This document shows positions 1 through 1,515 of a stretch of DNA of 32,000 bases, piece after piece. Under the pieces are notes generated by a model, which saw only the letters and a list, made by a program, of their open reading frames with translations, was not told the DNA's origin and searched no databases. The first letter of the stretch is position 1; each line of letters begins with the position of its first letter. Source of the DNA: an uncultured archaeon (GTDB taxonomy: Archaea > Asgardarchaeota > Jordiarchaeia > Jordiarchaeales > Jordiarchaeaceae); the NCBI GenBank assembly GCA_964510585.1, contig CAZECW010000038.1, positions 156-32,155 on the forward strand, read 5' to 3'. The position numbers were made by a program, and so were the translations under genes.

Positions 1-629
1 TTTTGGGAAATGGGAACAAAAAACCACATGTTCAAAATGCACTCCTGTTTGCGGGGCCTGTTTTTGTGGCTGCTTTGGGGAAAACATTTTGCAACATTTT
101 TAATCACATTTTGTAAAAATTTGGTTCAGAAAAGTTTTTTTGTGGGGGGGACTCGGGCAGGGCACAACAAAACAGACCAGCAATGCCGGGGTGTTTTTTA
201 AGCATGTGGAAAAATTCTGGTTTTTACCGATTCAGCGTTAAAAAATGAGAGTTCAACATTACCCACAGGTGCAATCCGCTCATAAGGCAACTTTCAACTG
301 CGTAACTCCTAACTGGTTTTAAGAAATTCAGAGCAGAGATTTACAATATCTCTTACCCTGTGATAAACGTTTTCTGCATATTCTCTTCCGAAAGCCTCTC
401 TGGCTGGTATTCCTTCTATTTCGTAGCCATAGAGCGCGGGTCCCCTAACTCTAGCTAGTTCTGCTGAGAGTTCTACGATATCTTGAAGTTTTTCTTTCAG
501 ATAGTTTGGTAGTCGGTTTCCAACTTGTACAAAGACGCCGCTTACGTCATGTTCCTTTGGGTACTCAACTGTTAGGTATCTTAGGACAGCTTTTATCGCT
601 AGTTCGAGGGCTTCCTGTGATCTTCTTAC

Positions 630-909
630 AAAACCTTGGTGAGAAAGCCCCCGACTTCAAGTCGTGGGGATGAATCGCCAAAAAAGCTTATTTGAAAGTA
701 GGGTATGTAAATAGTTGTTGGTAGCTGAAGGGTTTGGCTTGGGCTCAAGGAGGCTAAACAAGACGCAGCCCCCATGAGGGTGCCAACATAGACGCCGTTC
801 CCTTTGAGGGAAGGGCGTGCTAACTGGGTGATGGCACACCCATTGCTTCCTAAGGCTCCCGATGAGCCAGAAGCAAGAATCTCCCGACTTTAGTCGCGGA
901 GAGTGTCAA
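630..909 (+). mobile_element. Non-autonomous IS200/IS605-family (IS608-like) miniature element, no tnpA or tnpB
   Basis: Inserted immediately 3' of TTAC (626-629) and ends in TCAA (906-909), with no target duplication. Left end: AAAG (644-647) plus hairpin CCCCCGACTTCAAGTCGTGGGG (648-669). Right end: GAAT (877-880) plus hairpin CTCCCGACTTTAGTCGCGGAG (881-901). Precise removal restores the HEPN frame. Confidence 0.93.
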
Positions 910-925
910 AACTCCTGCGTAGTCC
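715..925 (+). ncRNA. Predicted TnpB omegaRNA (right-end RNA) scaffold plus flanking guide
   Basis: Consecutive hairpins at 732-759, 765-783, 792-818, 825-842, 843-876 and 881-901. Loop TGGCA (832-836) can pair with terminal TGTCA (904-908) as a pseudoknot. The 5' end is estimated from a TATA-like TTATTTGA at 688-695. The guide would be the flank from 910 (AACTCCTGCGTAGTCC). Confidence 0.65.
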
Positions 926-1004
926 TTTTCTGATGAGGCTAGTTCTGCTTCCCTTAGGCATCTTTGTGCTCTGAAAATATGGTCGGAAGCCATTTTTGTA
1001 TTTT

Positions 1005-1515
1005 TCAAATCTCAACTACCTTGAGGGTTTAGCGTCTGGTTTGAGAATCCAGTAGTGGCCCCTTTCAGTTTTGATTTTTTTAGCCCCCAATTGTTTCAGC
1101 TTTTCGGACAGTTTTTCTAGGATGCCCTTAAGGAAGTTATCTCTATCGTAAAGGATCACTCCGTCGTCTATTATATCAAGAAGGATGGGGGATGTGTTTC
1201 CACTTCTTGAGGTGTGAAGAATATGTCTGAAATTAAACAGTTTCTTCCAAGTTTTCTAAGTACCTGGTAAGATTCAGTTTCTCTAAGCTTGATGTGAATC
1301 CAGTTCGTTTCCCTGAATCTTAATCCCACATCTCGTGGAAGATCCTCAGCAACGACTAAAACATCTATATCACTTCTAGGCGTAGCCTCCCCCCGAGCGA
1401 CTGAGCCGAATAGACACACTGACCTCAACCGGTTCCCAAAGTGTGAAAGAATGTATGAAACATAATCTTTCAAAAGTCCAAGGTACTCCACAGAAATCCT
1501 ACCATCAAACATCAA
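1005..1515 (-). pseudogene. Minimal nucleotidyltransferase (MNT) antitoxin with two apparent 1-bp deletions
   Basis: LFGSVARG...SDIDVLVV motif. The ORF stops early at 1171, but adding one base to the G5 run (1187-1191) continues HPPILLDIIDDGVILYDRDNFLKGILEKLSEKLKQLGAKKIKTERGHYWILKPDAKPS. A second added base near 1021 gives KVVEI*, whose TGA overlaps the HEPN TTG start (TTGA overlap, 1005-1008). Confidence 0.85.

Follow-up and report, generated by a model that had tools for sequence, protein, structure and literature searches.

The 32,000-nucleotide stretch of archaeal DNA analysed here, referred to below as the window, carries at positions 630-909 an IS200/IS605 element without protein genes, a PATE, that keeps the core of a TnpB guide RNA. 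We put the probability of this reading at about 95%. The element is mobile, as seen from some 30 complete copies in unique contexts and from a HEPN frame that is split precisely at its boundaries, and its last ~120-135 nt are, by the alignments, homologous to the structured RNA located at the 3' end of TnpB genes, that is, at the right end of the transposon. A first-pass annotation of the window had described an ORF-less IS605-family mini-element, and this description is borne out: the ends are of IS608 type, no ORF is conserved, and the 280 bp lie at 630-909. The coordinates and motifs that it gave (TTAC, the insert, the flank, the six stems and the TATA-like box) were all found as described. 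The features on which the argument depends are the following:

312-629, minus strand: C-terminal part of the split HEPN gene (Pfam HEPN, E = 6e-12, profile positions 29-115 of 117)
626-629, plus strand: TTAC, target site of TnpA and, by the family rule, presumed TAM of TnpB
630-909, plus strand: 280-bp ORF-less IS200/IS605 element (PATE), complete, as defined by its copies, its boundaries and the split HEPN frame
644-669, plus strand: guide tetranucleotide AAAG (644-647) and left-end hairpin (648-669), for TnpA, by homology to the left ends beside tnpA
678-695, plus strand: A-rich BRE-like run and TATA-like box TTATTTGA (688-695), a putative promoter by homology to that of tnpA
715-790, plus strand: family-specific 5' segment with stems 1 and 2, without homologue and outside the centroid fold
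732-740 with 751-759, plus strand: stem 1
765-771 with 778-783, plus strand: stem 2
791-909, plus strand: homologue of the omegaRNA core, stems 3-6, by homology to TnpB 3' ends, covariance model R1 and covariation
792-796/798-802 with 808-812/814-818, plus strand: stem 3
825-830 with 837-842, plus strand: stem 4, loop ATGGCA
832-836, plus strand: loop TGGCA, proposed pseudoknot partner of TGTCA (904-908), by complementarity with one G-U pair
843-849/854-858 with 864-868/870-876, plus strand: stem 5
877-880, plus strand: GAAT, preceding the right-end hairpin
880-902, plus strand: stem 6, the right-end hairpin, with a UUUA loop
903-909, plus strand: tail GTGTCAA, the terminus of the element, ending in the cleavage site TCAA
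910-925, plus strand: 3' flank AACTCCTGCGTAGTCC, the would-be 16-nt guide, by its position and the TnpB rule
910-1008, minus strand: N-terminal part of the split HEPN gene, in frame with 312-629 once 630-909 is removed
1171-1515, minus strand: nucleotidyltransferase (MNT) gene, just upstream of the HEPN gene

All six stems can be read directly from the letters.

The boundaries of the PATE were set by aligning 29 full copies together with their flanks. TTAC stands immediately upstream in 27 of them, and all 29, the insert at 630-909 included, have GAGAGTGTCAA as their terminus, so that the terminal letters are TGTCAA in every one. Neither target duplications nor terminal inverted repeats were found in these 29 copies, and the subterminal hairpins lie at 648-669 on the left and at 880-902 on the right. 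The logic of these ends is that of IS608, with a TTAC target, AAAG plus a left hairpin, GAAT plus a right hairpin, and a terminal TCAA, the TTAC at 626-629 being identical to the left cleavage-site tetranucleotide of IS608. The element thus has all four tetranucleotides of IS608 (ISHp608, from Helicobacter pylori), two at each end, and like it has subterminal hairpins and no target duplication, whereas IS608 has both tnpA and tnpB and 630-909 has neither. The longest frame inside the PATE is 60 aa and is broken by 1-nt indels in other copies; since these indels, at 747-750, 803-806 and 849-851, vary from copy to copy, the family has no conserved ORF.

BLASTN of the 280 bp against its own genome (217 contigs, 3.78 Mb), which had been proposed as a check on the element, uncovered many further copies. 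There are 115 matches with an identity of at least 89%, made up of about 30 full copies inside contigs and about 90 half copies at contig ends, and the estimated copy number is about 75-80, at 90-97% identity. Of the 434 contig ends in the genome (G000), about 90 break off roughly 137-140 nt into the PATE repeat. Because so many half copies stand at contig ends, the repeat is a main cause of the fragmentation of the assembly, and it accounts for about a fifth of the contig breaks. An artefact of assembly or binning, with no real multi-copy element of one genome behind it, has a negligible probability in our view. The assembly is in 217 pieces with an estimated contamination of 4.8%, and about 90 of its contig ends fall inside the repeat; however, a genuine high-copy element would itself break contigs at the repeat, and the roughly 30 complete copies lie within contigs, each with unique flanks and, in 27 of the 29 aligned, with TTAC upstream.

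Several related fragments were also met in the genome. A right end of 35 nt that matches the terminus of the PATE with 100% identity stands alone at G000:C136:4664-4698, inverted and with the rest of the element absent. Other, different ORF-less IS605-type elements or solo left ends are found at G000:C107:6905-7200, G000:C162:24316-24400 and G000:C166:7975-8031, the first of these having its own variant of the RNA core (…GATAACTGGGTGGTGGCACACCCATTGC…).

The ends of the PATE are shared with full-length transposons resident in the same genome. Its first 56-62 nt have 92-96% identity to left ends that lie beside tnpA on contigs C7, C169, C162, C49, C42 and C15. Matching left ends (C7, C169, C162 and several contig ends) precede a Y1 tnpA gene and then the start of tnpB, and the tnpA genes look intact (Y1_Tnp, E = 9e-35). 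In these full-length elements the A-run and TATA-like stretch follows the left hairpin and lies about 45 nt upstream of the tnpA ATG, so that the element's "own promoter", proposed by the first-pass annotation with a TATA-like box at 688-695, is the homologue of the parent's tnpA promoter, kept in the PATE, and transcription from it is predicted. Every copy of the family keeps this stretch, and so do the independent PATE families found in sister genomes. The logic of a TATA box applies here because the genome encodes TBP, whose profile otherwise matches archaeal control genomes only.

At the other end, the last 36 nt of the insert differ by one base from the right end that stands behind a TnpB C-terminus on C8, and TnpB C-termini with a right end of this type are present also on C54, C152 and C45. 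Over the ~90 nt ahead of those last 36 nt, the PATE and the C8-type right end are 74% identical. A second TnpB lineage, on C81, has its last 41 nt 93% identical to the PATE. For the scaffold as a whole, the nearest TnpB right end shows 74% identity over 125 nt; BLASTN of the fragmented assembly and of 40 related genomes brought up no element that both carries TnpB and exceeds 90% identity in the scaffold, the best scaffolds being at 72-74%. A parent with matching ends, as the first-pass annotation had envisaged, therefore exists in part: left and right ends are common to the PATE and to resident tnpA-tnpB elements, and a TnpB element with the same scaffold was not found. Since the ends are common, the TnpA of those elements can move the PATE in trans; since the nearest TnpB gene of the genome reaches only 74% over the scaffold, the cognate nuclease is one that we infer. 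There are at least 4 resident copies of TnpB genes of the matching type, every one of them cut by contig ends, and the copy on C7 looks frameshifted. A full-length resident TnpB could not be reconstructed, the middle ~85 aa being absent from the assembly.

Among these elements, G000:C81:5075-6787 (L034:1318-3030, minus strand) reads as one 571-aa frame with Y1_Tnp, OrfB_IS605 and TnpB zinc-ribbon domains. We considered a TnpA-TnpB fusion and rejected it; in relatives at about 70% identity, which come from other archaeal MAGs, tnpA and tnpB occupy two frames that overlap by about 50 nt, so the single frame is probably a local frameshift. In the sister genome G004 (loci L061-L072 and L080, G004:C141:25863-29174), a PATE family of 198-207 bp arose from the C8-type element by a clean deletion that runs from just ahead of the tnpA start codon up to the RNA core, with ATAG as the microhomology at the join; in the full-length G004 element tnpA is degraded and tnpB is frameshifted.

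The evidence for a structured RNA comes from folding, from homology and from covariation. The RNA of positions 700-925 folds at -91.5 kcal/mol, compared with -73.3 +/- 4.5 kcal/mol for dinucleotide shuffles (z = -4.0, none of 200 shuffles as good), and both the minimum-energy and the centroid folds include stems 3-6 and lack stems 1-2. Positions 775-909 (~135 nt) align with the 3' ends of the TnpB genes located on C8, C54, C81 and G004:C141, and the core at 791-909 has homologues at the TnpB 3' ends of C8, C54, C152, C45 and C81. Stems 3 and 5 differ from those of the C8-type and C81-type TnpB elements by compensatory changes, ACGCC/GGCGT in the insert against GTGCC/GGCAC, and TTGCTTC/GAAGCAA against TTGGAGGTTC/GAGCTTCCAA, while AACATAG, GTTAAC, the ATGGCA loop, CAAGAAT and GTGTCAA are constant between the insert and these elements.

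A covariance model of stems 3-6, named R1, was built from 12 PATE copies. It matches 20 of the 41 genomes of the phylum, with E values down to 1e-16 outside the genus, and scores 140-176 bits for PATE copies and 88-93 bits for the nearest TnpB right ends. Covariation was counted on 43 diverse R1 matches aligned to the model; in this alignment, which leans towards structure by being fitted to the model, 92.1% of cells pair in stems 3-6, a figure that drops to 66.9% on shuffling and to 50% or less on sliding, and the covariation score of 0.486 compares with a maximum of 0.097 for slid alignments. The first-pass annotation had proposed covariation as a check on the stems, and for stems 3-6 compensatory changes were indeed found, 35 of the 37 pairs having changed on both sides. 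G-U pairs are frequent, which assigns the RNA to the plus strand. Among the 43 matches, about a dozen close long TnpB-like frames of 270-570 aa; the rest are ORF-less. TnpA, too, constrains the right-end hairpin and the TCAA tail, and therefore they are by themselves no argument for an RNA function; stems 3-5, in contrast, are not a substrate of TnpA.

The 5' part of the putative transcript behaves differently. The claim of a full omegaRNA with six stems is supported for stems 3-6, which are homologous and covary, and unsupported for stems 1-2, which are family-specific and have neither homologue nor covariation. In parents and relatives we found no homologue of the segment that carries them beyond borderline local matches of 16-25 nt, and a derivation of 715-775 from the C8 or C81 elements was set aside, the local alignment scores of 27-28 being borderline against null maxima of 25-27. 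Variants among PATE copies show no significant difference between paired and unpaired sites at stems 1-2 (732-783). The pseudoknot has modest support from the alignments. The TGGCA loop is complementary to the terminal TGTCA, with one G-U pair, as had been claimed; across 41 relatives 94% of cells can pair, compared with 21-43% when slid, and a few one- or two-sided changes keep the pairing. The support is modest because both segments are almost invariant and the tail overlaps the TCAA site of TnpA. A permissive cmscan of positions 400-1200 against Rfam (E up to 10) yielded nothing better than chance, all hits being to unrelated families at E > 2; HgcC RF00062, which Gomes-Filho et al. 2015 tied to the right-end-like tetraloop of these RNAs (PMC4615843), was not among them.

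A yardstick for this core is the omegaRNA of ISDra2, whose functional core is a 116-nt scaffold, the 5' 115 nt being dispensable; in it, the loop of one hairpin pairs with nucleotides -5 to -3, a stem encloses an inner stem, and a UUUA tetraloop at -20 to -17 closes the last hairpin (PMC10097598). In the same way, the RNA of the PATE would end at the right end of the element, would use the flank as guide and would have a core of ~116 nt; its last hairpin has a UUUA tetraloop (at -21 to -18 in 630-909), a loop is able to pair just before the guide, and an enclosing stem with an inner stem is present. By this yardstick, positions 791-909 would make up a complete omegaRNA core. The two differ in that no sequence similarity is detectable between them and the RNA here is detached from any tnpB ORF. 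Furthermore, the RNA of the PATE has an extra hairpin (stem 3) 5' to the one proposed for the pseudoknot, the latter having a loop of just 6 nt, and the target site, which should also be the TAM, is TTAC instead of TTGAT.

The conservation of the core admits another explanation. The PATE could be a plain non-autonomous transposon, moved by TnpA in trans, whose interior is an undecayed remnant of the parent's 3' end, without RNA function and unused by TnpB; we consider this rather unlikely. The copies are young (90-97% identical) and their conservation could reflect recency alone, the assembly contains no TnpB of matching scaffold, and the 5' stems (1-2) are unsupported. Within the family, variants are more frequent at unpaired than at paired sites only weakly (Mann-Whitney p = 0.08, Fisher p = 0.06; p range 0.05-0.09); yet most of the common variants lie in the loops of hairpins, a compensatory change from T-A to C-G is seen in stem 4 of 3 copies, and the core covaries across the phylum. 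The same fusion of the left-end promoter to the ~125-nt RNA core is present in independent PATE families of the sister genomes, which measure 198-207 bp in G004 and 245 bp in G003, with others in G001. Much shorter PATEs can move, those of 52 bp consisting of termini only appearing to be mobile in Haloquadratum (PMC3119063), and so the keeping of the core by several sister families points to a retention beyond the needs of transposition.

Alternatively, the RNA might be transcribed and important without being a TnpB guide, for example as a decoy that binds TnpA or as a regulatory sRNA acting on neighbouring genes. Such roles have been speculated upon for haloarchaeal sotRNAs and PATE RNAs (PMC4615843); overexpression of a PATE RNA altered the growth of Halobacterium, a role as TnpA competitor was proposed (PMC4615843), and the RNA of the present element would include the right-end hairpin that TnpA recognises. 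However, that proposal is older than the discovery of these 3'-end RNAs as guides of TnpB, and the conserved parts extend well past the TnpA hairpin and mirror the core that TnpB binds in ISDra2, which makes this explanation very improbable to us.

We favour the use of the PATE RNA by TnpB in trans, which we hold to be fairly probable. The retained tnpA promoter would drive plus-strand transcription that starts at about 715, crosses the right end and runs on into the flank, and the transcript would be trimmed to an omegaRNA with the 16-nt flank as guide, following the rule that the 3' flank serves this purpose in TnpB systems (PMC10097598, PMC10055086). TnpB supplied by a full-length element would load this RNA in trans, and resident TnpA would mobilise the PATE in trans through the common ends. 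When TnpA excises a copy, TnpB would cut the resealed TTAC plus flank, and repair from the sister chromosome would restore the copy; through this restoration, we propose, selection acting on the element would maintain the RNA part. Homing and retention of this kind have been demonstrated for bacterial elements (PMC10055086).

Excising 630-909 joins both minus-strand HEPN pieces into one frame, and the first-pass annotation had suggested that the guide RNA would attack intact HEPN alleles and so spread a toxin knockout; we find nothing beyond ordinary homing and retention, and no sign that the loss of HEPN is itself selected. A close paralogue with the HEPN target was not found, and TTAC plus the 16-nt flank of 630-909 has no second occurrence in the assembly. 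The neighbouring MNT gene (window 1016-1515, minus strand) also seems frameshifted, a 114-aa frame stopping at about 1171 and the C-terminal continuation (…LLDIIDDGVILYDRD…) lying in another frame across a C-run at about 1160-1180. Either the HEPN/MNT pair are both decaying or this is a homopolymer error; the second apparent lesion suggests that the HEPN/MNT module is simply decaying.

Unoccupied TTAC-plus-guide sites were sought for 83 right ends, and one case was encountered: at G000:C154:2119-2321, compared with G000:C12:8956-9153, TTAC plus the 16-nt flank of the C12 copy stands unoccupied, inside 198 bp that are 98% identical to the right flank of that copy. We rejected the C154 site as a simple empty allele of the C12 copy, since the left flanks differ; paralogy, variation between strains within the bin or a rearrangement involving the element could each explain the pair.

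Elements of this sort have been described before. PATEs were defined by Dyall-Smith et al. 2011 in Haloquadratum walsbyi (PMC3119063), and VNG_R0052 of Halobacterium salinarum is an expressed RNA of a fused left-end/right-end PATE (Gomes-Filho et al. 2015, PMC4615843). With these haloarchaeal PATEs (PMC3119063, PMC4615843) the present family shares the fusion of the left and right ends of an archaeal IS605-type element and a "homogeneous" family structure above 90% identity. It differs from them in lineage and sequences, and also in extent, since many haloarchaeal PATEs are 52-99 nt long with little beyond the hairpins, whereas here the whole ~120-nt core is kept; one haloarchaeal RNA has been seen transcribed, whereas that of the present family is predicted. 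Meers et al. 2023 reported that PATEs often encode omegaRNAs, which TnpB must use in trans (PMC10055086). The omegaRNA PATEs of Geobacillus stearothermophilus (PMC10055086) are likewise protein-less, have the ends of resident tnpB elements, keep the guide-RNA region and need both TnpA and TnpB in trans. The differences are an archaeal host, about 75-80 copies instead of a few, an archaeal TATA-type tnpA promoter upstream of the RNA and, in the present case, no TnpB found with an identical scaffold. The idea of an omegaRNA-bearing PATE is thus already known (PMC10055086), and 630-909 is a clean example of it and no new system, made mildly unusual by its high copy number, its archaeal host and the retained TATA promoter.

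These numbers also invite a more speculative reading, which we regard as quite doubtful. With about 75-80 cassettes of promoter and omegaRNA against a handful of TnpB genes, the guide-RNA-only element would be the dominant form of this transposon, and, if each cassette were expressed and loaded in trans, it would act as a hyperparasite of TnpB at the RNA level and as a library of some 80 guides on one or a few nucleases. If this were true, it would represent a natural intermediate between transposon nucleases with one guide and multi-guide systems.

The current picture of TnpB biology is unchanged by the PATE at 630-909. The element provides a well-resolved archaeal case in which TnpA ends, a promoter and a TnpB guide RNA travel without any protein gene to high copy. 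Furthermore, the comparative data yield a usable covariance model of a class of archaeal omegaRNAs and of its minimal core, which helps to annotate such repeats and to choose compact pairs of TnpB and omegaRNA.
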